A DNA stretch of 64,000 bases, from NCBI GenBank assembly GCA_964613475.1, contig CAZTGV010000002.1, positions 14,453 to 78,452 of the forward strand, given 5' to 3'. The DNA comes from an uncultured Gemmatimonadota bacterium. Its GTDB lineage: Bacteria; Gemmatimonadota; Gemmatimonadetes; Palauibacterales; Palauibacteraceae. How positions within the stretch are numbered: the first letter of the stretch is position 1; each line of letters starts with the position of its first letter. A program made the position numbers and the translations under genes. Below, piece after piece: positions 15,999 to 36,718 of the stretch. The notes under the pieces were generated by a model, which did not search any database, was not told the DNA's origin, and worked only from the letters and a program-made list of their open reading frames with translations.

Positions 15999-16008
15999 CG
16001 TCCCGGAC

Positions 16009-17678: not shown

Positions 17679-17790
17679 CGGAGCCTCTCTCCCGTCCCGT
17701 CGTTCCGGTCGGTTCCACCCCCCGCTGGACCCGCCTGACCCGAAATCCGCTCCCGGCCGCTCCTGACACCCGGGCGTGCCCCGAGGGCCG

Positions 17791-17818
17791 ATGGCGCATA
17801 AGATATATTATGTAAACT
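17791..17818. other. dif: Candidate dif site (XerC/XerD chromosome dimer resolution site)
   Basis: ATGGCGCATAA-GATATA-TTATGTAAACT set against E. coli dif GGTGCGCATAA-TGTATA-TTATGTTAAAT. The GCGCATAA XerC-arm core and TTATGT XerD-arm core are conserved with 11+6+11 spacing. It is the only AT-rich island in a 70% GC region and sits exactly at the convergence of the + and - gene blocks. Confidence 0.6.
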
Positions 17819-17932
17819 AGCGCCGCCCGGACGGGGAACCGGAGCCGGAGGCCAGGCCCCCCTGCCTCGCACCCTTTCCTCGACTCTCCGGAGGCCGGTC
17901 GTCGGCAGCCCTTCTGGGCTCGCCTCCGCGCC

Positions 17933-18658
17933 TTACAGGCGCCTGAAGACGGCCTTCAGACGGAGGGCCCACACCCGCCAGACCGCCTCGCGGACGATCG
18001 CGCCGGACATCTTGCTCTCGCCCACGTCGCGATCCACGAAGACGATGGGAATCTCGCCGACCCGAAAGCCCGACTTCCACGCCCGGAAGCTCATCTCGAT
18101 CTGGAAGGCGTAGCCGGTGGAGCCGACGCTCTCGAGGTCTACGCTATCCAACACCGCGCGTCGAAAGCACTTGAAGCCGCTTGTCGCATCCGTCACTGGA
18201 AGTCCGGTGACCCAGCGGGCGTACTTGTTGGCGAGCCAGCTCAGAAGCAGCCGGCCCATGGGCCAGTTGATCACGTTCACGCCCCGCAGATAGCGGGAGC
18301 CGGCGACCACGTCGAAGCGCTCCTCGGCCGCCGCCAGGAGCTCCGGCAGGTGCTTCGGATCGTGGGACAGGTCGGCGTCCATCTCGAAGATGTAGTCGTA
18401 CCCCCGGTCGAGCGCCTCGCGGAACCCCGTCAGGTAGGCCGAGCCCAGGCCGAGCTTGCCCGGCCGGTGGAGCACGTCCACGCGCTCGCTCGCCGCGGCC
18501 AGCCGGTCGGCCACCGCGCCCGTCCCATCGGGGGAGGCGTCGTCGATCACCAGCACGTCCAGCCGCGGGTCCTCCTCGAGCACGCGGGTGACGACCTCCT
18601 CGAGCGTCTCCACCTCGTTGTAGGTGGGGAGGATCACCAGACCGCGCCCGGGCCTCAC
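17933..18658 (-). CDS. GT2 polyprenyl-phosphate sugar synthase (Dpm1/GtrB-like, soluble-type)
   Basis: VILPTYNE...VIDDASPDGT...DADLSHDP motifs of DPM1-like GT2. GTG start with GGAGG RBS. 4-nt overlap with the upstream UPF0104 gene stop. Confidence 0.85.
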   Translation of the reverse strand: MRPGRGLVILPTYNEVETLEEVVTRVLEEDPRLDVLVIDDASPDGTGAVADRLAAASERVDVLHRPGKLGLGSAYLTGFREALDRGYDYIFEMDADLSHDPKHLPELLAAAEERFDVVAGSRYLRGVNVINWPMGRLLLSWLANKYARWVTGLPVTDATSGFKCFRRAVLDSVDLESVGSTGYAFQIEMSFRAWKSGFRVGEIPIVFVDRDVGESKMSGAIVREAVWRVWALRLKAVFRRL

Positions 18659-19662
18659 GCTCCCTCCCCTCCCCGACGGGCGAGCGCCAGGGCCGCCGCC
18701 ACGGCCACCAGCTCGGCGACCGTGGCCCAGATGCGCGCCCCGACCGCGACCAGCGCGGCCACCGGGGCCGGTTGGGGGGTGAGCGCCACCAGCAACCCCG
18801 TCATGGCCCCTTCGCGGACCACCAGACCGCCCGGGGCGAGCACCACCAGGAAGCCGGCCACGTAGCTCGCGGCGAAGATGCCGGTGGCGGCCAGGGGCCC
18901 CGGCGTGGCGGCGGGTCCCACCGCGCCGCGGAGGAAGCACCAGAAGGCCGCCCCGTACAGGAGCCACACGCCGGCCAGGGCGACCCCCGCCCCGAGCAGC
19001 GCGCCCGGGGGGGCGGCCTCGCCGGCGCCGGCCGCCTCCTCTTCGCGCAGCCAGCGGGCGGCGATCCGGGTCGCCCGCCGGACGACGGCCGGATGGAGGA
19101 GGAGCGCCAGCAGGACCCCCACCGCCACGAGCGCCCAGGCCGATCCCGCGATCCGTCCGACCGCGTCCAGGCCCGCCAGGCCGGCGAAGGCGGCGCCCGT
19201 GAGGAGCGTCAGCACCTGCAGCTGGACGCTGGTGGCCACCGCCGCCGAGGCCGAGTGGCCGCGGGCGCGGAGGTAGATGGCCAGCCCCGAGAGCTGCCAG
19301 ACCTTGCCGGGGATGTAGCGCCCGAGGTTGGAGCCCATCCAGGCCGCCACGCCACGGCCCAACCCGATGCGGGCGCCCGTTCCCCGGAAGAGGAAGACCC
19401 ACGCGGCCGCGGTGACCCCGAGGGCCGCGGCCGCCAGGAGCGTGGCGGCGGCCAGCCAGCCGGCGTGCAGCCGCCACGGGAACCCCTGGACCTGCGCCCG
19501 CAGCCGCGACCATTCCCCGAAGCGCTCCGTCAGGAGCAGCGCGACGAAGAGTGCCGCGACCACCAGGAACGCCGCCGCGAGCCAGCGACGCGCTCCCCGA
19601 CGGGACCGGGGACCGAGCCGGCCCGGCTCCGCGCCCCGTCCTTCCCTGCCTCCGCCGCTCAG
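18655..19662 (-). CDS. UPF0104 / lysyl-PG-synthase-TM-like (flippase-like) membrane protein; no canonical start (CTG 19662 overlapping yfhO stop is the only candidate)
   Basis: C-terminal 315 aa of ORF 18655..22074: 8 TM helices with the WRLHAGWLAAATLL and GRYIPGKVWQ-type segments of PF03706. Upstream part of that ORF is shadow of yfhO in another frame. Confidence 0.6.
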   Translation of the reverse strand: MSGGGREGRGAEPGRLGPRSRRGARRWLAAAFLVVAALFVALLLTERFGEWSRLRAQVQGFPWRLHAGWLAAATLLAAAALGVTAAAWVFLFRGTGARIGLGRGVAAWMGSNLGRYIPGKVWQLSGLAIYLRARGHSASAAVATSVQLQVLTLLTGAAFAGLAGLDAVGRIAGSAWALVAVGVLLALLLHPAVVRRATRIAARWLREEEAAGAGEAAPPGALLGAGVALAGVWLLYGAAFWCFLRGAVGPAATPGPLAATGIFAASYVAGFLVVLAPGGLVVREGAMTGLLVALTPQPAPVAALVAVGARIWATVAELVAVAAALALARRGGEGA

Positions 19663-22190
19663 CGGGTCCGCCTCGAGCGTCGCCGGGCGATCGCGAGCCA
19701 CCCGGCGCCCAGCACGAGCCCGGCCAGCGAAGCCGCCGAGAGGACGCGTCCGAGCGCCAGGCCGGGCACCCGATAGGAGAGCCGCACCTCGTGCTCGCCG
19801 GCCGGCACGAGGACGCCCCGGAACGCCCCGTTCGTGCGATAGAGAGGAAGCGCCCGGCCGCCGGATCCCGCGGACCACCCCGGAGCCCACACCTCGCTCA
19901 CGAACAGGAGGCCTTCCCGCTCCGCCGAGACCGAGAGGACCACCTCGTCCGCCGTCCAGCGTGTCAGGCGCGCGGTGCCCCGGCCCGCCGGCGGCGCCTC
20001 CGAAGCCTCGACCACCGCCTCGGCTCGGCCGTCGGACAAGGCGAGGGTCCGCCGGACGGCCTCTTCCGGCTCCGTTACGGCCGAGATGCGCTCCGGGAAC
20101 CAGGCGTGCGGCGCCGCCTCCGCGACCTCGTACATCCGGATCTCCGCCCCCGGTCGTCCGCCGAAGCCGACCGGCCGCAGGAGCGGGACGTCGAGCTCGG
20201 AACGGGTCGTCAGGTACCGGAGGTCGAACATGGGCCACAGCACCGGATGCCGGAACAGCGCCTCGAAGCCCACGCCGCCCACCAGCTCCGCGTACCAGGA
20301 GAGCAGGAACTTCTGGGTGCCCGCGACGGTCGGGACGTCGTGCCGCATGAGATCGTTCGGATGGTAGGTCCCCTCCACGGGCAGGGCGCGCTCTCCGGGC
20401 TCGAGCGACTCCTGGAGGAACGCCACCGGCCCGTCCGCGGTGAAGAAGGGGGCGGCCTCCGCCATCCGGACGAAGCGGGCGTCCACCCGCCACAGGTCGG
20501 CCACCAGGACGAGGAGGAGGACCGGGAGCGGCCACGGGGGTAGGCCCAGGCCACGCGGGCGCGATCCCTCCTTCCCCGCCCCCTCCGGGCCGTCGCCGCC
20601 CCGGCGCGCCGCCCAGGCGGCGGCCAGCACCAGGACCCAGGCCGCCACCAGGAAGCCGCCGGAGGTCCGGAGCGCCCCCTCCAGCTCCGCCGGCGGCGTG
20701 CGCGGCCAGCCGCCCGGGAACCAGGCGTGATAGACGAAGTTCAGCAACCCGCCCGGCGCCAGCAGGGCCGCCAGCCCGAGAACGAGGAAGGGCGCGGCGA
20801 CGCCTCCGAGCGCCCAGGCGGAGAGCGGCCGTTCCCGGGTCCGGATCCGCTCCCACCCGACCCCGGCCAGCAGCGCGACGAACGCCGAGACCGGCGCGAG
20901 CATCATGGAAGGCGCCCGGAAGCTGTCCATCAGCGGGATCGCCGCGTACGCGACCCGGTGGACCGGCGTCGCGCCGCCCAGCGCGAACAGGATCCCCACC
21001 AGCGACGCTCCACCCAGGAACCACACGGTCCCCCGGGACGCCGGCTCCCCCGGCACGCGCCCTCCGACGGAGGCAGCGACCGCCACCACCGCGAGCGCAA
21101 TGGGTACGGCACCCAGATACTCCGTGTGCAGCTTGAACGGGTTCGCGCCCCAGTACGTATCCAGCCCCCCGATCAGGTCGGGCAGGAAGAGCGCGGTCAC
21201 TTCCTGCGGCGGGAGCGCCCAGGATGCCGCGAACTCGTAGCCCTCCTCGGCCGCGGCCCGCACGACGTGCTCGAGCAGCGCCGCGGTGGGGACGATCTGG
21301 ACCGCGGCCAATCCGGCGGCGAGGCCGAACGCCCCCGCCACCCACAGGGCGCGCCGCCAGGGCGCCCGCTGCGCCGCGCGGGCGGGTCCGCGCTCGACCC
21401 GGGAAGCCGAGCGCCCCCCCGCCGGCTCGGCCGCCGCCGTCCGGTGGATCTCCCACAGCCGGAAGGCCGCGTAGGCGACGAGGGCGAGCGAGGAGAAGTA
21501 CATGACCTGCGCGTGCGGGGTGAGGAGCTGCAGGGCCAGCGCCGCCGCGAGGCCGAGGAACCATCCCGCCTCCCCGCTCCGGAGGCCGCGCTCCAGGAGC
21601 CCCAGCGCCAGCGGGATGAGCACGATCGCGAACATCCGACCGTCGTGCCCGCCGTACAGGGTGGAGAGGAGATAGCCGGAGAACATGAAGGCGAGCCCGC
21701 ACACCGCCGCCGCGGACCGGCCGAACCGGAAGGCGCGGGCCGCGAAGTAGGCGAAGGCGCCGGCCAGGAACAGGTGCAGCACGAAGGTCCAGCCGATCGC
21801 CCGGTGGAGCGGGAGCGCCAGGTAGAGGAGACTCGAGGGATAGAAGAGCGGCCCGGGCAGCGTGGCCAGGAATGGATGGCCCCCGTTCAGGTAGGGATTC
21901 CAGCCCGGGAGCCCGCGCCCGGCGCGCAGCTCCTCGAGCGCGAACCGGCGCAGCGGAAGGCCCTCCAGGATCATGTCGCTCCCGAAGAGCATCCGCTCGG
22001 CGTGGAAGACGAACTCCCGGAAGAAGAGGAGCGCCAGGATGGCCGTGCCGAGCGCGAAGGCGGCGTCCGCCCACCGCCCCCGGCGGACGCCGCCGTTCGG
22101 TGACGCGGGTGCGCCCGAAAGCGGCGTCCGCCCACCTTCCTCCGGCGGCGGCCCCTTCCCCGCCCCGCGCTCCGATCTCGGATGGCTCAT
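19659..22190 (-). CDS. YfhO-like GT-C membrane glycosyltransferase (843 aa)
   Basis: Roughly 13 TM helices plus a large C-terminal extracytoplasmic domain. N-terminal region FGSDMILEGLPLRRF...WNPYLNGGHPF resembles YfhO family. ATG at 22190 (aa 123 of ORF 19659..22556); 4-nt overlap with the methyltransferase stop. Confidence 0.65.
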   Translation of the reverse strand: MSHPRSERGAGKGPPPEEGGRTPLSGAPASPNGGVRRGRWADAAFALGTAILALLFFREFVFHAERMLFGSDMILEGLPLRRFALEELRAGRGLPGWNPYLNGGHPFLATLPGPLFYPSSLLYLALPLHRAIGWTFVLHLFLAGAFAYFAARAFRFGRSAAAVCGLAFMFSGYLLSTLYGGHDGRMFAIVLIPLALGLLERGLRSGEAGWFLGLAAALALQLLTPHAQVMYFSSLALVAYAAFRLWEIHRTAAAEPAGGRSASRVERGPARAAQRAPWRRALWVAGAFGLAAGLAAVQIVPTAALLEHVVRAAAEEGYEFAASWALPPQEVTALFLPDLIGGLDTYWGANPFKLHTEYLGAVPIALAVVAVAASVGGRVPGEPASRGTVWFLGGASLVGILFALGGATPVHRVAYAAIPLMDSFRAPSMMLAPVSAFVALLAGVGWERIRTRERPLSAWALGGVAAPFLVLGLAALLAPGGLLNFVYHAWFPGGWPRTPPAELEGALRTSGGFLVAAWVLVLAAAWAARRGGDGPEGAGKEGSRPRGLGLPPWPLPVLLLVLVADLWRVDARFVRMAEAAPFFTADGPVAFLQESLEPGERALPVEGTYHPNDLMRHDVPTVAGTQKFLLSWYAELVGGVGFEALFRHPVLWPMFDLRYLTTRSELDVPLLRPVGFGGRPGAEIRMYEVAEAAPHAWFPERISAVTEPEEAVRRTLALSDGRAEAVVEASEAPPAGRGTARLTRWTADEVVLSVSAEREGLLFVSEVWAPGWSAGSGGRALPLYRTNGAFRGVLVPAGEHEVRLSYRVPGLALGRVLSAASLAGLVLGAGWLAIARRRSRRTR

Positions 22191-23032
22191 GGTTCCGCCG
22201 CCCCTCGCTCCGCCGACGCGGTCCGCGCCCTGCCCGGCTCCGCCGACGCGGTCCGCGGCCCCGGCCGCTCCGCCGGCTTCTCGAGCAGAAAGAACCATTG
22301 CGGCGAGGCCGCGTGCAAGAGCGGCCGCCGGAGGACGCCGGGAAGCGCGCGCAGGAGCCTGGCCGCGATCCGCCACGGCCGGCCCCGGGAGGCGTCCACC
22401 AGCGCCATCGCCCGCTCCGTGCGGTCCCGCACCCGAAAGCCGGCCTCCCGCATCATCCGCAGTAGCGGCCCGCGGGTCCGGAAGCGGATTCCCTCGTAGC
22501 GCCGCCCCCGGCCCGTCCACCGCAGGTAGCGGTCGGCGAGCGGCCGGGGCAGCCAAGAGAGGAACGGGAGCCGGTAGTGCGGCTCCACGACCGCCAACCG
22601 GTTGCCCGCGGCCACGTAGGCCGCGCCGCCGGGGCGCAGCGCGCGGAACGCCTCGCGGAAGAGAGCCCCCTGGGCTTCCACGTGCTCGTACAGGTGGTTG
22701 AGGAGGAGGAAGTCGAGCGCGCCGTCCGCCACCGGAAGCCGGGTCACGTCGGCCACCGCCGTGCCACGTGGATGCTCGATGAACGACCGGTCCAACTCGA
22801 ATCCGTAGATGTATTTGCCTGTCTTGTCCTCGAGCGTCTTCTTGATGAGGCCGGTCCCGGATCCCAGGTCCGCCACCCGGTCGGCTGCGGCCAGCTCATC
22901 GGCGCACAGGCGGAGGATCACCCGGCCCTTCCGGGCCCGTTCGGCCCGGTAGCCGGCCGACCGCAGGCGGCGATCGTACGCGTCGCCCGCCACCCCCGCA
23001 TGACCACCTCCCCCACCCGCGCGGTCGCTCAT
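22187..23032 (-). CDS. Class I SAM-dependent methyltransferase with repeat-containing C-terminus
   Basis: Motif I VADLGSGTG, Methyltransf_11/23-like core. C-terminal RTASAE repeats are encoded by a 30-bp tandem DNA repeat. Confidence 0.75.
   Translation of the reverse strand: MSDRAGGGGGHAGVAGDAYDRRLRSAGYRAERARKGRVILRLCADELAAADRVADLGSGTGLIKKTLEDKTGKYIYGFELDRSFIEHPRGTAVADVTRLPVADGALDFLLLNHLYEHVEAQGALFREAFRALRPGGAAYVAAGNRLAVVEPHYRLPFLSWLPRPLADRYLRWTGRGRRYEGIRFRTRGPLLRMMREAGFRVRDRTERAMALVDASRGRPWRIAARLLRALPGVLRRPLLHAASPQWFFLLEKPAERPGPRTASAEPGRARTASAERGAAEP
22207..22276. repeat. 30-bp tandem direct repeat (about 2.3 copies: GCTCCGCCGACGCGGTCCGCGNCCNNGCCN) inside the 3' end of the methyltransferase gene, overlapping the yfhO start
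   Basis: Two near-identical 21-nt cores at ~22207 and ~22237, with a degenerate third copy at ~22267. They encode RTASAE(P/R)G peptide repeats. Confidence 0.6.
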
Positions 23033-23063
23033 CCGGGTCCGCGGTCCCCGGCCGCGCGGTGTC

Positions 23064-24386
23064 TCATTCCGCCCGGCCGTCCCCGGCGCGGTGCACGATC
23101 GCCCCCCGGTAGCAATCCAGCAGGTCGTCCACCACGCGCTCCCAGGAGAACCGCTCGCTCGCCCATCGCCGGCCCGCCTCGGCCACCCGACGTGCCTCCT
23201 CCGGCGCCGCGGCCACGGCCAGGATCCGCGCCGCCAGCGCCTCCGGGTCCCCCGGCGGCACCAGCCAGCCGGTCTCCCCGTGCCTCACGATGTCCGGAAT
23301 GCCGCCCACCGCGGAGCCGATCACCGGCCGTCCGAAGCGGAGCGCCTCGAGGAGCACCACCCCGAGCCCCTCGGTGTCCCCTTTCCGGTCGACCACCGCG
23401 GGCAGCACGAAGACGTCGCAGCGCGCGTACAGGTCGCGCAGCGTCGCCGCCGGCACGCGGCCGGTGAAGCGGACCCGCTCCTCGACGCCTGCCTCGCGAG
23501 CCGCCCGGCGGATCCGGGGCTCCCGCTCGCCCTCGCCCACCACCGTGAGGCGGGCCGGCCGCTCCCTCAGGATCCGCGGCAGCGCCCGGACCAGGACCTC
23601 CACCCCCTTGCGCTCGACCAGCCGGCCCACGAAGAGGAGCTCGATCGGCCCCTCTCCGGCCAACGGCGGGACGGCCTCGCGCTCCGGACTCTCAGCGCCT
23701 TCGGCCCGCTCGAGCGCGGCGGCGAAGGGGATCACCCGGGCCTCCCTCCCCCCGAGGGCGCGCACCCGCGCCGCCGTGGGCGTCGAGATCGCCGTCACCT
23801 CGTCCGCCGTCCGGATCGTCCAGCGCAAAAAAGATCTCAGCCATCGGAGCCGCCGCTCCACCCAGCGCAGCTCGACGCTGTAGTAGCTGCACACGAGCGC
23901 CGTCCGTCCCCCCGAGGCGCGCCGGGCCGCCGCGCCGAGCAGGGCGTGCGGCATCGGCCAGTGCACGTGGACCACGTCCGGCCGCTCCCGCCCCAGCCGC
24001 CACGAAGCGCCCACCCCCCCGGCCAGGTAGGCCGGCAGCAGGGCGGACCAGGCCGGACGCGCGGCGAGCCGGTCGGGGACCGTCTGGTCGTGGGTGAGCC
24101 GCTCGAGCGGCGCGGGGGCGTACCGGAAGCGGTGGACGGGGATGCCCGGCCCGCGCGCGTCGGACGGATCGGAGCCGCCGGCGCCACTGGCGACGGAGCC
24201 GGAGGCGCCCGTGGCGACGCGGCCGGTGGTGCCGGCGGTCCCCGGCGGTCCGCCCCGGTAGGCCGGCGCCAGCACCTCCGCCTCCACGCCCCGCTCCCGC
24301 AGGCGGCCGAGCAAGGTGACCAGCCAGGGCGTGATCACGTCCTCCGGCCCGCGCGGCCACGCGGTCACCACGTGGATCACCCTCAT
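23064..24386 (-). CDS. GT4 family glycosyltransferase (GT-B, 'glycos_transf_1')
   Basis: C-terminal EX7E-type region (GLGVVLLEALRFGRPVIGSAVGGIPDIV). ATG at 24386 (aa 196 of ORF 23064..24971) overlaps the upstream GT39 stop by 4 nt. Confidence 0.85.
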   Translation of the reverse strand: MRVIHVVTAWPRGPEDVITPWLVTLLGRLRERGVEAEVLAPAYRGGPPGTAGTTGRVATGASGSVASGAGGSDPSDARGPGIPVHRFRYAPAPLERLTHDQTVPDRLAARPAWSALLPAYLAGGVGASWRLGRERPDVVHVHWPMPHALLGAAARRASGGRTALVCSYYSVELRWVERRLRWLRSFLRWTIRTADEVTAISTPTAARVRALGGREARVIPFAAALERAEGAESPEREAVPPLAGEGPIELLFVGRLVERKGVEVLVRALPRILRERPARLTVVGEGEREPRIRRAAREAGVEERVRFTGRVPAATLRDLYARCDVFVLPAVVDRKGDTEGLGVVLLEALRFGRPVIGSAVGGIPDIVRHGETGWLVPPGDPEALAARILAVAAAPEEARRVAEAGRRWASERFSWERVVDDLLDCYRGAIVHRAGDGRAE

Positions 24387-25981
24387 CGTCCCGCGGCACC
24401 CTCCTTCGTCACGGCGTGCGCCGTGCGGGGCGGCGGCAGGAAGCGGAGCACGAGCGTCACCGGATCGCCCCCCTCGTACGCCACGTCGAACCGGCTCCGG
24501 TGGGCGCGGATGGCCGGGAGCAGGTAGCGGAAGGTGGTCCCGCTCACCTGGTCCACCACCACGAAGTCGGCCCCCATCGCCTCCAGGCCGGTGACCACCA
24601 CGTCCGGATCGGTCGAAAAGGGATAGACGTCCCCCCGGCGCCGGCCGACCCAGTAGAAGAGGCTGGGCTTCCGGTTCGCGATTACCGCGTCGGCCGGCGT
24701 ATGCTCTCCGGCCCAGCGCGCCGCCGCGTACAGACTGCCGAAGGCGGGTGGGTCGCAGGGCGTCCCCGACCGGTAGGCGGCCAGGCAACGCGCCCGCTCC
24801 GGGGCCAGCGTCGCGGCCGACCGGACCGCCGGCAGCGCGATCAGGAGGGCGGCCGCGATCGCCGCCGCCGTTCCGCGTCCGGCCCATCGGCGACCCGTCG
24901 CGGCGGCCCCCCCCATCGCGTAGAGCAGCAGGAGCGGCGCGAGCGGCAGGAGGAAGCGGGCATCGGTCCATACCTCAGGCCACAGGAGGATCAGCCCGGC
25001 GTAGAGGGCGGTGAACAGCTCGGGGGCTCCGAGGCGGTGGAGCGCGCGCACGATCCACCCCCCCAGCGCCAGGGCGGCCACGCCGAAGCCGAGCGCCACC
25101 GTCGCGCCGCCCAGCTCGTGGGGCGGCATCCCCGCGAAGGCCGCCGGAAGGACCTCGGAGAGGTAGGCCCACGCGTTCCCGGCGGCCCGGGCCAGAAACT
25201 CCGCCGGCCCGACGGCGCCGGCCGCCGGATCGTAGGGGTCGCGCAGGAGGAGCTCCTCCAGGTAGCCGGCCTGCCCGGGCGGAGCCGCTCGCTGGACCGC
25301 GGCCCACCCGGCCATCGCCGCCGCGGCGGCGCTCGCGGCGGCCGCCGCCCGCCCCCAGCGGCGGGCCAGCAGCGGCAGCGCCACCGCGGCCGCCAGCAGC
25401 GGGAGCCCGGCCGTCCGCGTGAGGAAGGCGGCCACCGCCGCCGCCACCCCGAGCCCGAACGCCCGCGCGCCTTCCTCCTCGGCGCGCTCGAGCCACCGGA
25501 GCGACAGGAGCGCCAGGAGGACGAACGGCGCCTCGGAGAGCACCCAGTGCCCGTAGTCGAGCAGCACGGGGTGGAGCGCCACCAGGCCCGCGGCCAGCAG
25601 GGCCGGGGCGGCCCCGATCAGGCGTCGGCCGAGCCGCGCGGTCAGCCACACCGCACCGGCGGTGCACGCCAGCGAGGCGAGCTTGAAGAGCTGAAGGCCG
25701 CCCAGCCAACCGAGGACCGCCAGACCGGCCGGGTAGAGAGGCGGATACTTGGTGTGGATCGGCGTATCCGGCAGGTAGAGGTCCCGGTAGCCGGCGCCCT
25801 CGCGGAGGGCCTCTCCGAGGAGCATATAGATCGCGTTGTCGCCGCCCGGGTGGAGGATCGGCTCGAAGAGGAGGATGCCGAGCAGCAGGTGCAGCCCGAC
25901 GGCGCCGAGCGCCCAGCCCCGGAAGGAGAGTCCGAGCAGGGACCAGGCGGCGCGAGGGGCCTCCCCCCGCCCCGCGCTCAC
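24383..25981 (-). CDS. GT-C membrane glycosyltransferase, ArnT/PMT-like (GT39/GT83 family)
   Basis: 532 aa with ~11 TM helices. N-terminal loop with conserved acidic/aromatic residues (GDNAIYMLLGEAL...YPPLYP) typical of PMT_2/ArnT-like transferases. GTG start. Confidence 0.7.
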   Translation of the reverse strand: MSAGRGEAPRAAWSLLGLSFRGWALGAVGLHLLLGILLFEPILHPGGDNAIYMLLGEALREGAGYRDLYLPDTPIHTKYPPLYPAGLAVLGWLGGLQLFKLASLACTAGAVWLTARLGRRLIGAAPALLAAGLVALHPVLLDYGHWVLSEAPFVLLALLSLRWLERAEEEGARAFGLGVAAAVAAFLTRTAGLPLLAAAVALPLLARRWGRAAAAASAAAAAMAGWAAVQRAAPPGQAGYLEELLLRDPYDPAAGAVGPAEFLARAAGNAWAYLSEVLPAAFAGMPPHELGGATVALGFGVAALALGGWIVRALHRLGAPELFTALYAGLILLWPEVWTDARFLLPLAPLLLLYAMGGAAATGRRWAGRGTAAAIAAALLIALPAVRSAATLAPERARCLAAYRSGTPCDPPAFGSLYAAARWAGEHTPADAVIANRKPSLFYWVGRRRGDVYPFSTDPDVVVTGLEAMGADFVVVDQVSGTTFRYLLPAIRAHRSRFDVAYEGGDPVTLVLRFLPPPRTAHAVTKEGAAGR

Positions 25982-25985
25982 CCGG

Positions 25986-26951
25986 TCACGCCCTCCGGTC
26001 CCGTCGCAGCTCCTCGATCTCCGCCCGGAGCGAGGCCACCATCTCGGCCAGGAAGCCCAGGACGAACAGGAGCAGGCCCGAGACGACCAGCAGGAGCACC
26101 AGGGTGAGGAGCGGCCGGTAACCCTGCCCGAGGCCGAAGCGGAGCCAGAGGGCGACCAGGCCCGTCAGCCCCCCGAGGGCGAGCAGGCCCAGGCCGGTCA
26201 CCCCGAAGAAGAGCATCGGCTTCCGGCTGAACACGAGCTGGAACCAGATGGCGATCAGGTCCAGCATGCCGATCACGATCCGGCCCCGGCCCGCGTACTT
26301 GGGCTCGCCGTGGCGCCGCGGGTACAGGCGGATGTCGATCTCGGTGATGCTGAAGCCGCGCGCGTGCGCCAGCACCACCAGGAAGCGGTGCCAGTCCTTC
26401 CGCAGCCGCAGCTCCTCCAGCACGCCGCGCCGGAACGCCTTCATCGCGTTCATGTCGTGCGCGGGGACGCGGAACACCCGCCGCGTCAGCCAGTTGTAGA
26501 TGCCGGAGACGAGCCGCTTCTCGTACGTCCCGACCTTCCGCCCCGCCACCACGTCCCAACCCTCCTCCAGCTTCTCCACGAAGCGCGGGATCTCCCCGGG
26601 AGAGTGCTGGAGATCGGCATCGAACAGGACCAGGTACTCGCCCCGGGCCGCCCGGGCTCCCGTGAGCAGCGCCTCCGTCTTCCCCCGGTTGCGCCGATGC
26701 CGGAGGAGGCGGGCGTCCGGGAGTCCGGCCTCGGCGGCCGCCCGGCGCGCGGCCTCCAGGGTGCCGTCGGTGGAGCCGTCGTCCACCAGCACGACCTCCG
26801 CGTCCACGGACCCGGAGGCGAAGGCGGCGGCGAGCTCGCGGAAGAGGTCCGGCATGTTCTCGGCCTCGTTGAAGGCCGGGATGATGACCGACGTGCGGTG
26901 GGTGAGCTGTACGCTGGGGGGTGGGGCGCGCTCGGAAACGGCCCCGCTCAT
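25986..26951 (-). CDS. GT2 polyprenyl-phosphate glycosyltransferase (ArnC/GtrB-like, with 2 C-terminal TM helices)
   Basis: VIIPAFNEAEN...VLVDDGSTDGT...DADLQHSP motifs plus C-terminal TM pair, as in ArnC/GtrB. ATG at 26951 overlaps rpoN stop (ATGA). Confidence 0.85.
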   Translation of the reverse strand: MSGAVSERAPPPSVQLTHRTSVIIPAFNEAENMPDLFRELAAAFASGSVDAEVVLVDDGSTDGTLEAARRAAAEAGLPDARLLRHRRNRGKTEALLTGARAARGEYLVLFDADLQHSPGEIPRFVEKLEEGWDVVAGRKVGTYEKRLVSGIYNWLTRRVFRVPAHDMNAMKAFRRGVLEELRLRKDWHRFLVVLAHARGFSITEIDIRLYPRRHGEPKYAGRGRIVIGMLDLIAIWFQLVFSRKPMLFFGVTGLGLLALGGLTGLVALWLRFGLGQGYRPLLTLVLLLVVSGLLLFVLGFLAEMVASLRAEIEELRRDRRA

Positions 26952-28384
26952 ACCCGCTTTCGCATGCGGGCCGAGAGGATCCCGAGCTGGTCCCGGTACT
27001 TGGCCACCGTGCGCCGGGCGATCTGGATCCCCTCCTTCTTGAGGATGTCCACGATCGCCTGGTCTGTGAGCGGGTCGTGCGAGTCCTCCTCGGCCACCAG
27101 CTGCTTGATCTTGGCGCGCACGCCGCGAGCCGAGACGTCCTCGCCGTAGTCGGTCGACAGCCCGCTGGAGAAGAAGAACTTGAGGTGGTACACGCCGCGC
27201 GGCGTCTGCACGTACTTCTCGTTCGTGACCCGCGAGACTGTGGACTCGTGCATGTCGATGTGCTCGGCCACCTCGCGGAGGGTGAGCGGCTTCAGGTGCT
27301 CCACCCCTTTCTCGAAGAAGTCGCGCTGCCGGTCCACGATGAAGTTCATCACCTTCAGCATCGTCTGCCGACGTTGCTCGATCGCCTGGATCATCCACTG
27401 GGCGCTGTTCAGCTTCTTCGAGATGAACGTCTTGTTCTCGCCCTGGAACTGGTTCTTGTTCTTCGCCACCTCCCGGTAGGAGCGCGAGAGCTTCAGGCGC
27501 GGCAGGCTCGTGTCGTTGTGGAACACGTAGTACTTGCCGTCGATCTTCTCGACCACCAGGTCCGGCGTCACGTACGTGTCCCGCATGTCCGCGTACTTGA
27601 GGCCCGGCTTCGGGTCGAGCTTCGCGATCTCGTCCGCGGCGGACTGGACCTCCTTGGGGGAGATCCCGTGCTCCTTGGAGAGCTCGCTCCAGCGGTGGTT
27701 CACCAGCTCCTCGAAGTGGTCGCGGACGATCCGGTAGGCGAGGCTCTCCTCCTGGTCGCGGTCCCGCAGCTGGATGAGCAGGCACTCCCGGAGGTCGCGC
27801 GCCCCCACCCCGCTGGGCTCGAAGCCCTGGATGACTCGCAGGACCTCCTCGGTCTCCTCGAGGGTGATCGTCTCCACCCCTTCCCACTGGGGGTTGCCCG
27901 GGTCCGAGAGGAAGTTGTTCACCGACTCGACGACCTCGTCCAGCTCACAGGTGAGGAAGCCCTCCCGGTCGATGTTCCCGATGATCTCCTCGCCGATCAG
28001 GACCTGACGGGGCTCCAGCTTGAGGAGCTTGAGCTGGTCGCGGAGGCGGTCCCAGAGGTCCTCGGTGGCGACCGGGGTGGGCTGGTAGTACTCCTTCTCC
28101 TCGTACTCCGCCTTCCGACCCCCCGCGTCGAAGCCGTTGAGGAGGATCTCCTCCCAGTCGACCTCGTCGTCCAGCTCGTCCTGCTCGAGCTCGTCCTTGA
28201 GGTCGTCCTCGCCCGGCTCCACCAGGTCGAGGAAGGGATTGTTGACCAGCTCTTGCTTGAGGTGCTGCTGCAGGTCCAGGAGGGGCATGTACAGGAGATC
28301 CATCGCCTGATACAGGCGAGGGTTGACCTTCATCTCCTGCTTCATCCGGACGCTCTGGGAGAGGCCCGTCCTCATATTGCTCAT
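26948..28384 (-). CDS. rpoN: RNA polymerase sigma-54 factor
   Basis: N-terminal Gln/Leu-rich region I (MKQEMKVNPRLYQAMDLLYMPLLDLQQHLKQEL), core-binding domain, HTH and RpoN box (ARRTVAKYR). ATG at 28384 (aa 50 of ORF 26948..28531). Confidence 0.9.
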   Translation of the reverse strand: MSNMRTGLSQSVRMKQEMKVNPRLYQAMDLLYMPLLDLQQHLKQELVNNPFLDLVEPGEDDLKDELEQDELDDEVDWEEILLNGFDAGGRKAEYEEKEYYQPTPVATEDLWDRLRDQLKLLKLEPRQVLIGEEIIGNIDREGFLTCELDEVVESVNNFLSDPGNPQWEGVETITLEETEEVLRVIQGFEPSGVGARDLRECLLIQLRDRDQEESLAYRIVRDHFEELVNHRWSELSKEHGISPKEVQSAADEIAKLDPKPGLKYADMRDTYVTPDLVVEKIDGKYYVFHNDTSLPRLKLSRSYREVAKNKNQFQGENKTFISKKLNSAQWMIQAIEQRRQTMLKVMNFIVDRQRDFFEKGVEHLKPLTLREVAEHIDMHESTVSRVTNEKYVQTPRGVYHLKFFFSSGLSTDYGEDVSARGVRAKIKQLVAEEDSHDPLTDQAIVDILKKEGIQIARRTVAKYRDQLGILSARMRKRV

Positions 28385-28611: not shown

Positions 28612-29364
28612 CTAGAGGCGGAAGTCCTGTCCCAGATACATCTTACGAGCCTCGGGATCGTTCACGAGCCGCTCCGCGGGCCCCTCGATGTGGATGCGGC
28701 CGTTGAACATCAGATAGGCCCGGTCGGTGATCGACAGCGTCTCGCGCACGTTGTGGTCGGTGATGAGAACGCCGAGTCCTTTTTCGCGGAGTCCGGCCAC
28801 GATTCGCTGAATGTCGTCCACCGCGATCGGGTCGACCCCGGCGAACGGCTCATCCAGCAGCATGAACTTGGGGCTGGTGACCAGCGCCCGAGTGATCTCC
28901 AGCCGGCGGCGCTCGCCGCCCGACAGCGCGTACGCCTTGCTCTTCCTCAGGTGCTTGATGTGCAGCTCGTCCAGGAGCGCCTCGAGCCGGCGGCGGCGCT
29001 CGTCCCGGCTCAGGTCGAGGGTCTCCAGGATGGCCATCACGTTCTCCTCCACCGTCAGCTTCCGGAAGACGGACGGCTCCTGGGAGAGGTACCCGATGCC
29101 GGCCCGCGCCCGGCGGTACATCGGCCAGTCGGTGATCTCCTCCTCGTCCAGGAACACCCGGCCCCGGTCGGCGTCGAGCAGCCCGACGATCATGTAGAAG
29201 GTGGTCGTCTTCCCGGCTCCGTTCGGGCCGAGCAGGCCGACGATCTCTCCCTGCTCGACCCGCACGTCGACCTCGTCCACCACCCGCCGCTTGCGGAATG
29301 CCTTCACCAGCCCGGAGGCACGCAGGACGCTCCGCGCGGGCAGGGGGGCGTCGGGGCGTGGCAT
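28612..29364 (-). CDS. lptB: LPS export ABC transporter ATP-binding protein LptB
   Basis: Walker [13 protein letters not shown] signature LSGGERRR, Walker B LLDEP. ATG at 29364 (aa 48 of ORF 28612..29505). Confidence 0.9.
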
Positions 29365-29501
29365 GGCCGCGGCGGCCTGCCCCGGCGCGGCCTCCCGGTG
29401 CCCCCGGGGGGGCGCCTGCGTGCCCGCCCCGTCGGCGCCGGCACCCAGGGTCCCCGGGTCCGAGCCGGCCCCCGCCGCCTCCGCGCCCGCGGCGCGCGCG
29501 C

Positions 29502-31217
29502 TCATCGCCCGCCCTCCGGGGGCCGCTCCGCCGGCCCCGAGACGGTGTCCGAGGGGGCCGGTTCGCCTTGGGGAAGCGGCGGGAGCGTGTCCGGGGGCGC
29601 GCGCCCGGGCGGCGCCTCCCCGGCCGCCCCCTCCTCCAGCGGGTCCAGGTATAGGCCGATCGCGTCGCGTCCGACCACCCGGCTCGCCTCGCCCTCCTCG
29701 AACAGGATTTCGATCTCCCGGCCGATCAGGTAGTTGCGCGAGGGGATGGACGTGCGCGTCGTGTCCCGCACGGCCGCGTAGAAGGCGCGGGCGTCGCCGA
29801 CGACCCGGATGCGCCGCAGGCGGGCCTCCCGATCCCCGGCCGGTTCGGTGGCCGTTTCTCGCTCGGCCGCTCCGTCCGGCTCGTCCCCGTCCTCGGCCGC
29901 TCCATCCGCTCCGTCCCCTTGCTCGGCCGCTTCATCCGCCCCGTCCTCGGCGGGCTCGGCCGGCAGCGGCTCGAACATCGCCCACAGCGTGTCGCCCGTG
30001 GCCCAGTTCGTCTCCCTCTCCACCGGAAGCTCGGGGTCCGGGATGCGGCGCGGCTCCGCGCCGGCCCCCGACCGCGCCGTCGGCTCGTCCTCGGCCGCGC
30101 GCTCCGTCGTCTCCTCCCCGCGCACCGCCACGGCCCGTCCGACCGCCACGATCGTGTCGAGCCGGCCCTCCACCAGGAAGAAGCGGAGGGAGTCCCCGTA
30201 CAGGCGGTGCGGCGGTGAGAGGGCGAGCGAGCGTTCCGGTCCGAAGGCCCACACGGCGTCCACCTCGTCCTCCTCGACCCGGATGTGGATCGCCTCGGCG
30301 AGCACCTCGAAGGACTCCCCCGCGGCGCGCCCGCGGCCGAGCGCGCGCACCTCCTCCAGGTCGCCTTCCTGAAAGCGGAGGCGGATCGTGTCGCCCTCGA
30401 GCGAGAAGCGCTCCCCCGCCGCCCGTGGCGTTCCGAGGAGGAGCCCGGTACCCGCCTCGAGGTCGAAGAAGGCGCTGTCGGAACTCGCGCGCAGGTCGGG
30501 CCTCTCGATCACCACCTCCCCCCACGCCGCGGCGCGCTCCTCCCCGGCGAACTCCGTCCGGTCCGCGTCCACCTCGAAGGGCGGCGCCTCCGGGTCTTCC
30601 TCGGAGCGCAGCACCATGTGCGGGCGACCGGTCGCCACGGTGCGCTCGGCGACGCCCGACACGGCCCGCAGGAACTCCACCCGCGGTCCCTCCAGCGTGG
30701 AGCCGGAGCCGAAGCGCTCCAGGCGGACGTCCCCGGTCGCCACCACCCGGTCGCCGACCTGGTAGTAGTCGAGCCGCTCCGAATCGAGCCGCCGGATCGT
30801 GTCCCGGTACCGGACCCGCCCCAGCAGCTCCACCCGGCGCTCGGCCTCGTAGCGGACGGCGCTGTCGGCCTCCATCACGGCCGTTCCGCACGTCCATTCC
30901 ATCCCCCCTCCCACGTGCGTGACGTGCCCGCCGGCGGGGTCGCGGACGCTCACGCTGCGCGTCTCGGGGGAGGCCGGCTCCCAGGTGAGCACGCAGCGGC
31001 GGAGTCCGGGCTCGTCGGGCCCTTCCGGGCCCTCCGGCTCCACCTCTTCGGCCGGGCGGGGCGGCTCCTCCTGCTCCGCCTCCTCCTCCCGAGGCTCGGG
31101 CTCCTGGCCGACCGCCGCCGAGCCGGGGAGTCCGAGCGCCAGCAGGGCGACCGCCAGCGCGGCCAGGAGCGTCGGGCGGACGGGGGGCGCGGGGATCGGG
31201 CGCGCGGCGGACCGCAT
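29502..31217 (-). CDS. lptA: LptA/OstA-family periplasmic protein, unusually long (571 aa) with acidic low-complexity tract
   Basis: Signal peptide ([38 protein letters not shown]). Repeated OstA-like beta-jellyroll segments. Sits in the lptC-lptA-lptB context. Confidence 0.65.
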
Positions 31218-31225
31218 CGGCGCGG

Positions 31226-31816
31226 CTATCCCTCCCCCTCGGCGCGACCGGCCGGCTGGAGCACCCGCACCGTGTCCAGCGCCGGGTCGGTCTCGAACCC
31301 GCGGCCGCGCAGCACCGTGTCGCCCCGGTAGAGGGTGAACGCGCGGTCGCTCCGCAGCCGGTCGGCCACCGCGTCGTACTCGAGCTCCTCGGTGACCAGC
31401 CGCTGGCCCTCCCGGCGGTCCAGGAGCACGACGCCGCCGAACGCCTCCATGTCGTTCCGCTGCATGTCGTAGTAGCCTTCCCGGGCGGTGAGCTGGGAGG
31501 TCACCCGGCCGTCCTGGTCGTAGAAGGTCAGGTCGACCGGCACCACCCGCACCCGCGTGTCGTCCCGGAGGAAGTAGGCGGTGTCCGCGACGAGGTGGGC
31601 GCGGCGCAGGCCGCTCCGGCTCATGAAGTGCTCCATGTCGACCAGCACCTGATCGGCCCCGAGCCGCAGGAACTCCGGCCCGGCCGTCTCCACCGGGTCC
31701 TCCGACCCGCAGCCCGCGAGCGTCGCGATCAGGGCGAGCGCGCCGAACGCGGCCGGGCCGCCGGATCGGCCGCGCGCGATCCGCGCCCCGCCCCGCTTCC
31801 CCTCGCACCGCCTCAC
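31226..31816 (-). CDS. lptC: LptC-like protein (lipoprotein-type signal LAGC); alternative GTG start at 31846
   Basis: Position between kdsD and lptA. C-terminal LptC-like beta-jellyroll. ...AAFGALALIATLAGCGS lipobox. Confidence 0.6.
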   Translation of the reverse strand: MRRCEGKRGGARIARGRSGGPAAFGALALIATLAGCGSEDPVETAGPEFLRLGADQVLVDMEHFMSRSGLRRAHLVADTAYFLRDDTRVRVVPVDLTFYDQDGRVTSQLTAREGYYDMQRNDMEAFGGVVLLDRREGQRLVTEELEYDAVADRLRSDRAFTLYRGDTVLRGRGFETDPALDTVRVLQPAGRAEGEG

Positions 31817-31842
31817 GCCGCCACGCCTCGCCTCGCTCGGCC

Positions 31843-32823
31843 TCACGCCATTCCGGCACGCAGGAGGTCGTGCAGGTGGACGATCCCCCGCAGCGCCCCC
31901 CGTCCATCCACCACCGGCAGCGCCATGATCCCGTGCGTCTCGAGCTCCCGGACCGCCTCGGCGGCCAACGCGTCGGCCCCGATCACCTTCGGCTCCCGGT
32001 TCATCGCCCGCTCCACCGGATCGGTCAGGAAGTGGGGCCGCCCCTCCGCGTAGCGCGTGAGGTCTCCCGCGGTCAGCACCCCGATCACTCGCCGCGCCTC
32101 GTCCACCACCGGCACCGTGCCTCGCTTGTGCGCGATCTCCCGCATCGCCTCTCCCAGCGTGGACCGGGGGCCCACCGCCGGCACCTCCCCCTCGTCCTTC
32201 ACCATCACGTCCTCTACCCGCCAGAGGAGACGGCGTCCCAGCGCCCCGCCCGGATGCAGACGGGCGAAGTCCTCGGCGCCGAAGTCCCGCTCCTCCAGCA
32301 GCGCCATGGCCAGCGCGTCGCCCATGGCCAGGGCGGCCGTGCTGCTCGAGGTGGGGGAGAGGTCGTGCGGGCACGCCTCCTCGGCCACGCTCACGTCCAG
32401 CACGACCTCCGCGTGCCGGGCCAGGGTGGAGCGGAGCCCCCCGGTGAGGGCGATCACCGGAATGTCCAGCCGCTTGACCGCCGGCATCAGGGCGGACAGC
32501 TCCTGGGACTCGCCGCTCCGGGACACGACGAGCAGCAGGTCACCGCGCAGCAGCACCCCCATGTCGCCGTGGATCCCCTCCACCGGGTGGAGGAACAGGG
32601 CCGGCGTTCCGGTGGAGGCCAGGGTGGACGCGATCTTCCGGGCCACCAGGCCGGACTTCCCGATTCCGGTGACCACCACGCGACCCGGCGCCGACAGGAT
32701 CCGCCGCACGGCGGTCACGAAGCGCTCGTCGAGTCGGTCTCCGAGCGCCGCCACGCTCTCCGCCTCGAGGCGGATCGTCTCCCGGCCGCGCGCGAGGACC
32801 CGCCCGTCCCGATCCCCGATCAC
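31843..32823 (-). CDS. kdsD: Arabinose-5-phosphate isomerase KdsD (SIS + tandem CBS)
   Basis: SIS domain (VVVTGIGKSGLVARKIASTLASTGTPA) plus CBS pair. GTG at 32823 forms a GTGA overlap with kdsC stop; longer ORF start at 32958 would overlap kdsC by 140 nt. Confidence 0.85.
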   Translation of the reverse strand: MIGDRDGRVLARGRETIRLEAESVAALGDRLDERFVTAVRRILSAPGRVVVTGIGKSGLVARKIASTLASTGTPALFLHPVEGIHGDMGVLLRGDLLLVVSRSGESQELSALMPAVKRLDIPVIALTGGLRSTLARHAEVVLDVSVAEEACPHDLSPTSSSTAALAMGDALAMALLEERDFGAEDFARLHPGGALGRRLLWRVEDVMVKDEGEVPAVGPRSTLGEAMREIAHKRGTVPVVDEARRVIGVLTAGDLTRYAEGRPHFLTDPVERAMNREPKVIGADALAAEAVRELETHGIMALPVVDGRGALRGIVHLHDLLRAGMA

Positions 32824-33401
32824 CCGGACCCCTCCGGCCGTCCCCGGCCGCGCGCCACGTACGCGTCCACCAGCCGGCTCCATTCGCCCCGCGCCCGAAG
32901 GAGCGCCTCGGCGAACTCCCGCACCGCGCCCCGCCCGCCCGGCGCGGTGGAGCGCCACACCGCCCGCCTTCGCACCTCGGGCGCCGCATCCGCCACCGCG
33001 GCGGGCAGTCCGACCCGCTCCAGGACGGCGAGGTCCGCCAGGTCGTCGGCCAGGCAGGCGGCCTCCGCCCAGCCGCAGCCGTGACGATCGAGGAGCGCCT
33101 CGATCCGCTGCACCTTGTCGAACGGGCCCACCTGGTGGACCTCCTCGATGGAGAGGTCCGCCGCCCGCGCCCGGACCGCCGGGGAGTCCTTGCCGGAGAC
33201 CACCGCCACCGCGAGGCCCGCCTCCCGCAGGAAGTGGACGCCCATCCCGTCGCGCACGTGGAAGCGGCGCAGCCCGTAGGGGCGCCCGTCGGGGCCGTCC
33301 GCCACGTAGATCCCCCCGTCGGTGAGCACGCCGTCCGCGTCCAGCACGATCAGCCGAACTCGACGGGCGCGCGTCGCGAAGTCGCCGCCGGGATCGGTCA
33401 C
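32820..33401 (-). CDS. kdsC: Kdo-8-phosphate phosphatase KdsC (HAD superfamily)
   Basis: HAD motif I LIVLDADGVLTDG, KdsC-size 194 aa. GTG start overlapping kdsA stop. Upstream part of ORF 32820..33800 is low-complexity. Confidence 0.8.
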   Translation of the reverse strand: MTDPGGDFATRARRVRLIVLDADGVLTDGGIYVADGPDGRPYGLRRFHVRDGMGVHFLREAGLAVAVVSGKDSPAVRARAADLSIEEVHQVGPFDKVQRIEALLDRHGCGWAEAACLADDLADLAVLERVGLPAAVADAAPEVRRRAVWRSTAPGGRGAVREFAEALLRARGEWSRLVDAYVARGRGRPEGSG

Positions 33402-34213: not shown

Positions 34214-34238
34214 GGGCGGGGACGCGCGCGGCCGCCGT

Positions 34239-36718
<2,480 letters not shown>

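Follow-up and report, generated by a model that had tools for sequence, protein, structure and literature searches.

A conserved rpoN-linked gene cluster in the Gemmatimonadota encoding a candidate multi-component transmembrane glycosylation pathway

Systems that combine a GT-A glycosyltransferase, a flippase and a GT-C glycosyltransferase are well known in Gram-positive and Gram-negative bacteria, with flippases of the GtrA, SMR, Wzx or MATE type, and act on lipopolysaccharide (LPS), O-antigen and teichoic acids (PMC8035078, PMC11127046). Here we analyze a stretch of 64,000 nucleotides (the window) from an uncultured Gemmatimonadota bacterium of the family Palauibacteraceae (assembly GCA_964613475.1, contig CAZTGV010000002.1, positions 14,453 to 78,452), in which seven genes at 17,933 to 26,951 encode two GT2 enzymes, two GT-C proteins, a PF03706 membrane protein, a GT4 and a methyltransferase (Table 1), so that a lipid-phosphate-sugar synthase, a candidate flippase and a GT-C are encoded together. 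We suggest, with a probability of roughly 40%, that the seven genes form a single multi-component transmembrane glycosylation pathway acting on an envelope acceptor, preferably the lipid A/inner core of LPS. Every part comes from known families, and the chemistry implied is not novel; what is new is a flippase candidate of the PF03706 type, an adjoining soluble synthase of the DPM1 type, a conserved GT4, a fixed position after rpoN and a YfhO-family GT-C in an LPS-bearing diderm.

Among described systems, CsbB-GtcA-YfhO, GtlA/GtlB, Csd and Gac of the Firmicutes share with the cluster a transmembrane (TM) GT2 for C55-P-sugar, a flippase and a GT-C of YfhO/PMT_2 type (PMC5836110, PMC8035078). 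The present cluster, in contrast, lies in a diderm with LPS and no teichoic acid (which a diderm encoding 3-deoxy-D-manno-octulosonate (Kdo) and Lpt genes is not expected to make), its flippase candidate is a PF03706 protein rather than GtrA/GtcA or Wzx, its conserved unit includes an extra soluble DPM1-type GT2 as well as a GT4 and a methyltransferase, and PF09586 covers only 77 C-terminal residues of its YfhO-like protein. With ArnC-ArnE/F-ArnT it has in common an ArnC-like GT2, the ArnT-like GT-C fold and, here, linkage to Kdo/Lpt genes, but genes for ArnA, ArnB, ArnD and an SMR-type flippase are absent from it, neither sequence nor profile searches match its GT-Cs to ArnT, and its upstream GT2 scores 108.4 bits against a cut-off of 529 on the NCBIfam ArnC model PRK10714, so far under the threshold that it is not an ArnC equivalog or orthologue, although the architecture is common to both.

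PF03706 (UPF0104) proteins have two documented contexts. In archaea, a conserved neighborhood joins an AglD-like GT2, a UPF0104 protein, for which a flippase role has been proposed, and a PMT/STT3-like GT-C, and Haloferax AglD is a Dol-P-hexose GT2 fused to a UPF0104 domain (Makarova et al. 2015; PMC5898192). AglD/AglS and the cluster thus have in common neighboring genes for a DPM1-like GT2, a PF03706 protein and a GT-C; in the cluster, however, which is bacterial, the GT2 and the PF03706 protein come from two distinct, overlapping genes whose order is reversed, and AglD serves completion of the N-glycan on the S-layer glycoprotein. In Pseudomonas, the GpgSDF operon comprises a GT4, a deacetylase and a UPF0104 protein and makes glucosaminyl-phosphatidylglycerol (GlcN-PG), and HexSDF of C. 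difficile is called analogous (PMC12713373). The GT4 and the stand-alone PF03706/UPF0104 'flippase' in one operon are common to both, but the cluster and its flanks lack a deacetylase, its GT4 is no GpgS equivalog (61.8 bits against a cut-off of 480 on the GlcNAc-PG synthase model NF053787), its PF03706 gene stands beside GT2 and GT-C genes, and it has two GT-Cs and two GT2s; it is not an operon of the GpgSDF type. Mycobacterial Ppm1 with PimE and MptA/B, together with PimA and PimB', offers another likeness, a soluble DPM1-type synthase and a GT4 inside with a GT-C outside; AftD is also the top fold match of the YfhO-like protein and the GT4 resembles PimB', but the cluster has neither a phosphatidylinositol synthase nor an Lnt-like Ppm2, its GT-Cs are not GT87/PimE-like by sequence, and the two differ in phylum and envelope. 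Finally, the Gemmatimonadota and Bacteroidota are related phyla, and their YfhO proteins are homologous over their full length and each conserved phylum-wide, but in Bacteroides the gene has no GT2, PF03706 or GT4 genes clustered with it and its function is a prediction.

The gene set is conserved among related loci. A one-genome-per-species scan yielded 105 relatives, from which 80 loci were kept, nearly all labelled Gemmatimonadota and a few 'uncultured bacterium'; the window proteins were searched against all of them by tblastn, and the 63 loci that span the cluster define the counts given here. The upstream TM-anchored GT2, the GT4, the YfhO-like protein and the soluble GT2 are each present in all 63, the PF03706 protein in 62, the PMT_2-like GT-C in 51 and the methyltransferase, whose position is variable, in 50, while rpoN lies upstream in 61; the cluster comes after it in every examined Gemmatimonadota locus that extends so far upstream. 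The invariant core is therefore the TM-anchored GT2, the GT4, the YfhO-like protein, the PF03706 protein and the DPM1-like GT2, and because this set recurs at the same place in 63/63 loci its clustering is not due to chance. Gene order is exactly that of the window in 33 loci, whereas Palauibacter (L003) has the order GT2-GT4-GT-C-YfhO-PF03706-(insert)-GT2-(ion channel)-methyltransferase. The Palauibacter insertions, which fall between the PF03706 protein, the soluble GT2 and the methyltransferase, are genes for an apparently secreted protein that carries Big_2 and Laminin_G_3 domains (L003 13487-14680) and for an ion channel (15560-16462).

Homologues of the YfhO-like and PMT_2-like proteins were found in Gemmatimonadota metagenome-assembled genomes only, at 44-61% and 50-64% identity respectively, besides near-identical matches of 98-99% on short contigs. 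In an exhaustive search of 1.84 billion representatives, the clade collapses to about six clusters, followed by a second tier at 30-37% identity with members from Gemmatimonadales, Longimicrobiales and Gaopeijia maritima, which is in culture, besides at least one protein of Zixibacteria. Three second-tier loci (L084-L086, of which L085 is from a Longimicrobiales genome) carry the same core at the same place after lptB-rpoN, and the position of the cluster after rpoN is fixed in every Gemmatimonadota order sampled, with Palauibacter, Gemmatimonadales and Longimicrobiales among the loci examined. These three loci also have an Epimerase_2 gene (UDP-GlcNAc 2-epimerase family) before the GT4 (L084 7748-8914, L085 7584-8864, L086 7720-8886), and in two of them, after the soluble GT2, there is a PlsC-type acyltransferase (L085 15653-16328, L086 15788-16435) plus an uncharacterised protein of about 200 residues; the epimerase and the acyltransferase hint at chemistry involving a ManNAc-type sugar and lipid.

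The G+C content of the window is about 74% and uniform throughout, so that raw lists of open reading frames (ORFs) are mostly spurious; genes were therefore called with a frame plot of codon-position GC (GC3) and an ORF scorer derived from it. The plot shows an unbroken series of minus-strand genes from 17933 to past 36 kb and bears out the boundaries of the seven genes as first drawn in the original prediction, whose seven family calls were likewise upheld by concordant Pfam domains, PDB sequence matches, AlphaFold2 (AF2) models and Foldseek searches. The genes are tightly packed. The first is translationally coupled to rpoN, the ATG of the upstream GT2 overlapping the rpoN stop codon (ATGA), with the same 4-bp overlap in L001 and L003; there follow a 4-nt gap between this GT2 and the PMT_2-like GT-C, an ATGA overlap of the latter with the GT4, a 31-nt gap before the methyltransferase, an ATGA overlap between the methyltransferase and the YfhO-like gene and, at the downstream end, a GTG of the soluble GT2 that overlaps the stop codon of the PF03706 gene (GTGA). 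The PF03706 gene itself starts either with a CTG at 19662, in a CTGA overlap with the YfhO stop codon, or with a GTG that lies within the YfhO gene at 19701, a start-codon scan having found no ATG, GTG or TTG between that stop codon and the first TM helix. Scans for terminators and promoters gave results at chance level (three terminator-like sites against 2.4 expected), as did a scan for the sigma-54 promoter consensus (one match against 1.6 expected), and there is thus no evidence that rpoN autoregulates the cluster.

Neither GT-C had a match in the PDB when searched by sequence or by homologue profile, so that structure was needed for their assignment. AF2 models, built on 42-sequence alignments, reached a pLDDT of 87.5 and a pTM of 0.90 for the YfhO-like protein and a pLDDT of 91.7 and a pTM of 0.90 for the PMT_2-like protein, and Foldseek searches of the PDB returned GT-C enzymes only at the top of both lists: for the former AftD (2.5e-09) and ArnT (6.6e-06), then STT3, PglB and Pmt4, and for the latter STT3 (7.6e-08) and ArnT (5.9e-07, TM-score about 0.54), then ALG12, AglB, DPY19, AftA and PimE. 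The structure predictions therefore confirm the GT-C fold of both. The catalytic acid of GT-C enzymes sits in the first periplasmic loop, and in each family this loop, which is long, has an invariant aspartate just past TM1: Asp72 in the alignment of YfhO-like homologues, and Asp48, within an invariant G46 G47 D48 N49, in the PMT_2-like family. The YfhO-like model further shows about 13 TM helices, a periplasmic, beta-rich C-terminal domain and a final TM helix.

At the level of families, the labels 'YfhO' and 'ArnT-like' of the original prediction are loose ones. PF09586 is above its cut-off in the YfhO-like protein but matches only residues 742-818 (profile positions 758-835), near the C-terminus, and all 42 aligned homologues match it as well (best E 2.7e-16). 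Alignment by hhalign of the clade profile with a YfhO-family protein of Bacteroides finegoldii (annotated by PGAP) extends over 701 columns with 22% identity (99.8%, E 5e-29), so that the protein does belong to the broad YfhO family despite the C-terminal match; proteins annotated 'YfhO' include a separate YfhO-like family (Durairaj et al. 2023). For the PMT_2-like protein the PF13231 match is marginal, and among the 120 homologues listed no more than about 24 have a precomputed PMT_2 or PMT match. The PF03706 protein matches the full domain of its family. A tblastn search of plasmids with the YfhO-like protein gave matches to its C-terminal 13-18% only, the one in Limosilactobacillus being a fragmented, unannotated gene. 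The original prediction also held that YfhO has been characterised mainly in teichoic-acid glycosylation of Firmicutes, and indeed the 40 best-ranked of 96 papers naming YfhO contain no characterised diderm YfhO, the lone non-Gram-positive exception being a July 2026 preprint that predicts a role for YfhO in Bacteroidota.

The two GT2 enzymes both have a GT-A domain with a DxD motif, as expected of GtrB/ArnC/DPMS-type enzymes, but differ in how they would reach the membrane. The upstream enzyme has TM helices at about residues 248-266 and 284-302 by hydropathy and aligns over its full length with the solved structure of ArnC (9bhc, E 2.9e-30, 108 bits) and less closely with GtrB (5ekp, E 2.6e-17). 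For the soluble enzyme, whose identity across the clade is about 61-76%, the best PDB match is the Pyrococcus Dol-P-Man synthase 5mlz (E 6.5e-31, residues 7-232), with the PTYNE, MDADL (DxD) and C-terminal R..GESK motifs all kept at the residue level; among NCBIfam models AglJ is its top match, and a haloarchaeal Dol-P-hexose transferase also scores.

In the PF03706 protein the domain match spans profile positions 5-299 of 302, with about eight TM helices by hydropathy, while a PDB sequence search gave no match. Its family was called correctly in the original prediction, which read it as a flippase for lipid-linked sugars; that reading is not the only one, since GT4-made glycolipids are the second documented context of the family (PMC12713373). 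Lipid translocation has been demonstrated for the MprF domain only, GpgF and PplT being putative flippases. In 62 of the 63 loci the gene lies between those for the YfhO-like protein and the soluble GT2, usually with overlapping codons, and never beside the GT4, and this position favors the AglD-type over the GpgSDF-type context. Our favored interpretation, by analogy, is that the PF03706 protein and the soluble GT2 represent a split AglD, in which the former would anchor the synthase and translocate its product; no fusion of the two was seen in the 70 loci where both genes adjoin.

The GT4 finds its best PDB matches in the BshA-type 2jjm (1e-26) and in PimB' (3oka, 1.8e-25), also resembles PimA, and reaches the cut-off of no NCBIfam model. 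Fusions of the soluble methyltransferase with the YfhO-like protein were seen in P0020 (1040 aa) and in L080, where the methyltransferase reads through into the YfhO-like gene; some of these could be frameshift or assembly artefacts, the two genes overlapping by 4 bp in the window. Together with the predicted cytoplasmic N-terminus of the YfhO-like protein, such fusions would place the methyltransferase at the cytoplasmic face of one machine.

Table 1. Features of the gene cluster and its immediate surroundings in the window
Feature	Coordinates	Strand	Evidence
dif-like XerC/D site ATGGCGCATAA-GATATA-TTATGTAAACT	17791..17818	.	AT-rich island in convergent gap after last gene
Soluble DPM1/Ppm1-type GT2 (polyprenyl-phosphate hexose synthase catalytic domain)	17933..18658	-	PF00535 118.9 bits; no TM helix
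PF03706/UPF0104/PplT membrane protein (MprF flippase-domain family)	18655..19662	-	PF03706 52.8 bits (cut-off 33.4)
Core GT-C, broad YfhO family, 843 aa	19659..22190	-	PF09586 44 bits (cut-off 28.5)
Class I S-adenosylmethionine-dependent methyltransferase, soluble	22187..23032	-	Methyltransf_23/11 ~50 bits; alternative start 22993
Cytoplasmic GT4 (GT-B) glycosyltransferase	23064..24386	-	PF00534 147 bits
Accessory GT-C, weakly PMT_2-like, 532 aa	24383..25981	-	PMT_2 (PF13231) 27.3 bits (cut-off 26.1), marginal
ArnC/GtrB/CsbB-type GT2 (polyprenyl-phosphate glycosyltransferase) with a pair of C-terminal TM helices	25986..26951	-	PF00535 111 bits
rpoN (sigma-54), directly upstream of cluster	26948..28375	-	Sigma54_AID, CBD and DBD domains
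kdsB, pyrG, kdsA, kdsC-like, kdsD, lptC, long lptA-like, lptB (in transcription order)	28612..36715	-	Pfam

From the gene content, folds, conservation and gene overlaps, which were observed, we infer the substrates, the flippase role and the acceptor in the following scheme, which retains the sound logic of the original prediction that a polyprenyl-P-sugar is made inside, flipped and transferred outside. The cluster would be transcribed with, or just after, lptB-rpoN. At the cytoplasmic face both GT2s would charge polyprenyl (undecaprenyl) phosphate with sugars, the upstream one held by its own TM anchor and the soluble one probably docked on the neighboring PF03706 protein, which would then move the lipid-linked sugar or sugars to the periplasmic leaflet. 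There the YfhO-like GT-C as the core enzyme and, where present, the PMT_2-like GT-C as an accessory would put the sugars onto an envelope acceptor, while on the cytoplasmic side the GT4 with the methyltransferase may build or modify this acceptor ahead of its export. Since the cytoplasmic GT4 is invariant and is joined in some lineages by an epimerase, a methyltransferase or an acyltransferase, the acceptor appears to be built or modified inside and would thus be lipid-linked, and a lipid-linked acceptor together with the Kdo/Lpt neighborhood leads us to rank the lipid A/inner core of LPS first, ahead of protein O-glycosylation and then of a flipped glycolipid, as the preferred order. In Rhizobium, the GT4 enzyme LpcC attaches the first sugar of the core to Kdo, after which RgtE (GT2) and RgtA-D (GT-C) modify core and lipid A on the periplasmic side; by this likeness the GT4 of the cluster could act on Kdo as LpcC does.

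Several points weigh against this interpretation. Substrate and acceptor cannot be read from sequence, and the window, which contains Kdo and Lpt genes, has none for lpx, waaA or msbA. In Proteobacteria the genes downstream of rpoN (hpf, ptsN) are unrelated to LPS, which makes the position after rpoN weak evidence. Where a locus lacks the accessory GT-C, only one GT-C is encoded there for two GT2 donors, which the simple scheme leaves unexplained. Characterised YfhO enzymes act on teichoic acids, and in the related Bacteroidota YfhO is predicted by the preprint to be a protein O-oligosaccharyltransferase. PF03706 proteins, moreover, are also linked to GT4-made glycolipids, and fusions of PF03706/PplT with GT-B domains occur in Actinobacteria, Nitrospirae, Chloroflexi and Acidobacteria.

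Three other explanations have to be weighed. The original prediction saw in the cluster two complete parallel pairs, that is, two independent three-component systems with one common flippase and maybe different targets, in which the ArnC-like GT2 would serve the PMT_2-like GT-C and the DPM1-like GT2 the YfhO protein; on this model the GT4 and methyltransferase would be bystanders. Each GT2 does adjoin or lie near one GT-C in the window and in the 33 loci with its gene order, and GT-A/GT-C gene pairs are usual in Firmicutes (CsbB-YfhO, YkcC-YkcB, YkoT-YkoS), but the pairs do not stand as a conserved unit: the PMT_2-like GT-C has been lost in 12 of the 63 loci, which have no room for it between the GT2 and the GT4, while the GT2 supposed to serve it never has; the Palauibacter order breaks the pairs up; and the GT4, which had been left unexplained, belongs to the core and is as invariant as the GT2s. 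PMT_2 and YfhO are also known as single polypeptides of 1200-1290 aa (P0311, P0317, P0331, P0349 and P0383), PMT_2 being N-terminal and the YfhO-like part C-terminal, all from distant YfhO relatives in the representative library; because BLASTP found no similarity between the PMT_2-like protein of the window and the N-terminal PMT_2 half of one such fusion, these support cooperation of the two families, which tend to work together, and not orthology. The losses of the PMT_2-like gene, the fusions of YfhO with PMT_2 and with the methyltransferase, and the invariant GT4 argue for one pathway with a core and an accessory GT-C, and two separate systems seem improbable. Protein O-glycosylation is a more serious contender, if still a doubtful one; here the YfhO-like GT-C, alone or together with the PMT_2-like one, would modify Ser/Thr residues of periplasmic, outer-membrane or membrane-anchored proteins, taking as donor either polyprenyl-P single sugars or a short lipid-linked oligosaccharide that the TM-anchored GT2 primes, the GT4 extends and the methyltransferase methylates. 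O-mannosylation in actinobacteria and eukaryotes pairs a DPM1-type GT2 with a GT-C of the PMT type, Haloferax has a similar two-branch scheme of AglJ, further glycosyltransferases and the AglP methyltransferase with AglD and AglS, and glycosylation of streptococcal membrane proteins is reportedly performed by GT-C enzymes fed by a GtrB-type GT2. The long alignment with the B. finegoldii protein, whose gene lies next to ahcY, points the same way, as do the preprint, which predicts that the Bacteroidota YfhO is the missing, essential O-oligosaccharyltransferase of a phylum-wide system, and a paper on streptococcal membrane proteins whose Ser/Thr-rich disordered regions are glycosylated (PMC12041528). 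An initiating phosphoglycosyltransferase and a Wzx are both missing from the cluster, however, no candidate acceptor protein is linked to it, and the Bacteroidota assignment is itself a prediction for a gene with none of these neighbors.

In the remaining explanation, which we regard as unlikely, the GT4 would glycosylate an inner-leaflet glycerolipid, the PF03706 protein would flip the product as MprF does lysyl-phosphatidylglycerol, and the GT-Cs would extend it outside with polyprenyl-P-sugars, giving a diderm analogue of the mycobacterial route from phosphatidylinositol mannosides to lipomannan. The GpgSDF and HexSDF operons, the PF03706-GT-B fusions, the resemblance of the GT4 to PimB' and PimA, the acyltransferase right after the cluster in L085 and L086 and the precedent of Ppm1 with the PimE/Mpt GT-Cs are all consistent with such a lipoglycan, but the PF03706 gene always adjoins those for the DPM1-like GT2 and the YfhO-like protein and not the GT4, which in Palauibacter stands apart from it, and this scheme would leave the polyprenyl-P-sugars without a flippase. 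The low score of the GT4 on the GlcNAc-PG synthase model and the missing deacetylase also speak against it. A single pathway on an LPS acceptor is thus the interpretation we prefer. In a bolder one, to which we give rather little credence, the cluster would make a Gemmatimonadota-wide glycoconjugate tied to rpoN and LPS export and without described counterpart, with the PF03706 protein as both flippase and dock for the DPM1-type synthase, as in a split AglD, and the YfhO-like protein as a diderm relative of the enzyme predicted for general O-glycosylation in Bacteroidota.

The Kdo/Lpt neighborhood noted in the original prediction is confirmed by Pfam, and the order from kdsB to lptB is identical in L001, L003 and L084-L086. 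Within it the gene at the lptA position (29502-31217, minus strand) encodes 571 aa with long acidic low-complexity stretches, far exceeding the usual length of LptA, and has no Pfam match in the window, its L001 orthologue having a faint LptD_N/OstA match only. The rest of the window is housekeeping (engA, plsY, gpsA, surE, pcm, fab genes, plsX, sucCD, ndk, nuoLMN and a PGM/PMM-type mutase), and an Rfam search of it gave no match. The mutase (51479-52849, minus strand), which belongs to either the phosphoglucosamine mutases or the phosphomannomutases, is 25 kb away from the cluster and may supply sugar-nucleotide precursors. There are also two membrane proteins with a DedA/VTT domain, at 15357-15998 (plus strand) and 40009-40701 (minus strand), of a family that includes flippases that recycle undecaprenyl phosphate; the first is about 2 kb from the cluster, across the dif-like site, was detected in 28 of the 63 spanning loci, flank length limiting the rest, and could recycle carrier lipid freed by the GT-Cs. 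A mobile or horizontally acquired island was considered and rejected in view of the uniform GC, the housekeeping flanks and the synteny kept across the phylum.

The dif-like site lies in a 254-nt gap (17679-17932) and is the sole intergenic AT-rich island of the 64 kb; we take its sequence to match dif as it occurs in E. coli and B. subtilis. It is kept in 33 relative loci (30 distinct places), with conserved arms and a variable 6-bp spacer, and lies just past the soluble GT2 gene in the relative loci checked. Cumulative GC skew reaches its maximum at 16-18 kb, where the gene strand also flips. The site marks where replication terminates and where the transcription unit ends, and, taken with the skew peak and the strand flip, makes the cluster the final transcription unit on one replichore, directly adjoining the terminus. 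A tyrosine recombinase with Phage_integrase and Phage_int_SAM_1 domains (38990-40012, minus strand), 21 kb from the site, is probably XerC or XerD, which would act there.

A search of the literature on Gemmatimonadota LPS, polar lipids and envelope chemistry found nothing usable, while the phylum is abundant in soils and sediments. A gene set held at one chromosomal position across the sampled orders and coupled to rpoN probably makes a conserved component of the envelope in these bacteria. Kelly et al. pointed out that the flippases proposed for polyprenyl-phosphate sugars, which are still largely putative, lack direct evidence of activity, and the cluster provides a clean genetic setting for the question of whether PF03706 proteins flip such sugars. 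It also bears on the role of YfhO-family GT-Cs in diderms, a subject made newly topical by protein O-glycosylation in the Bacteroidota.

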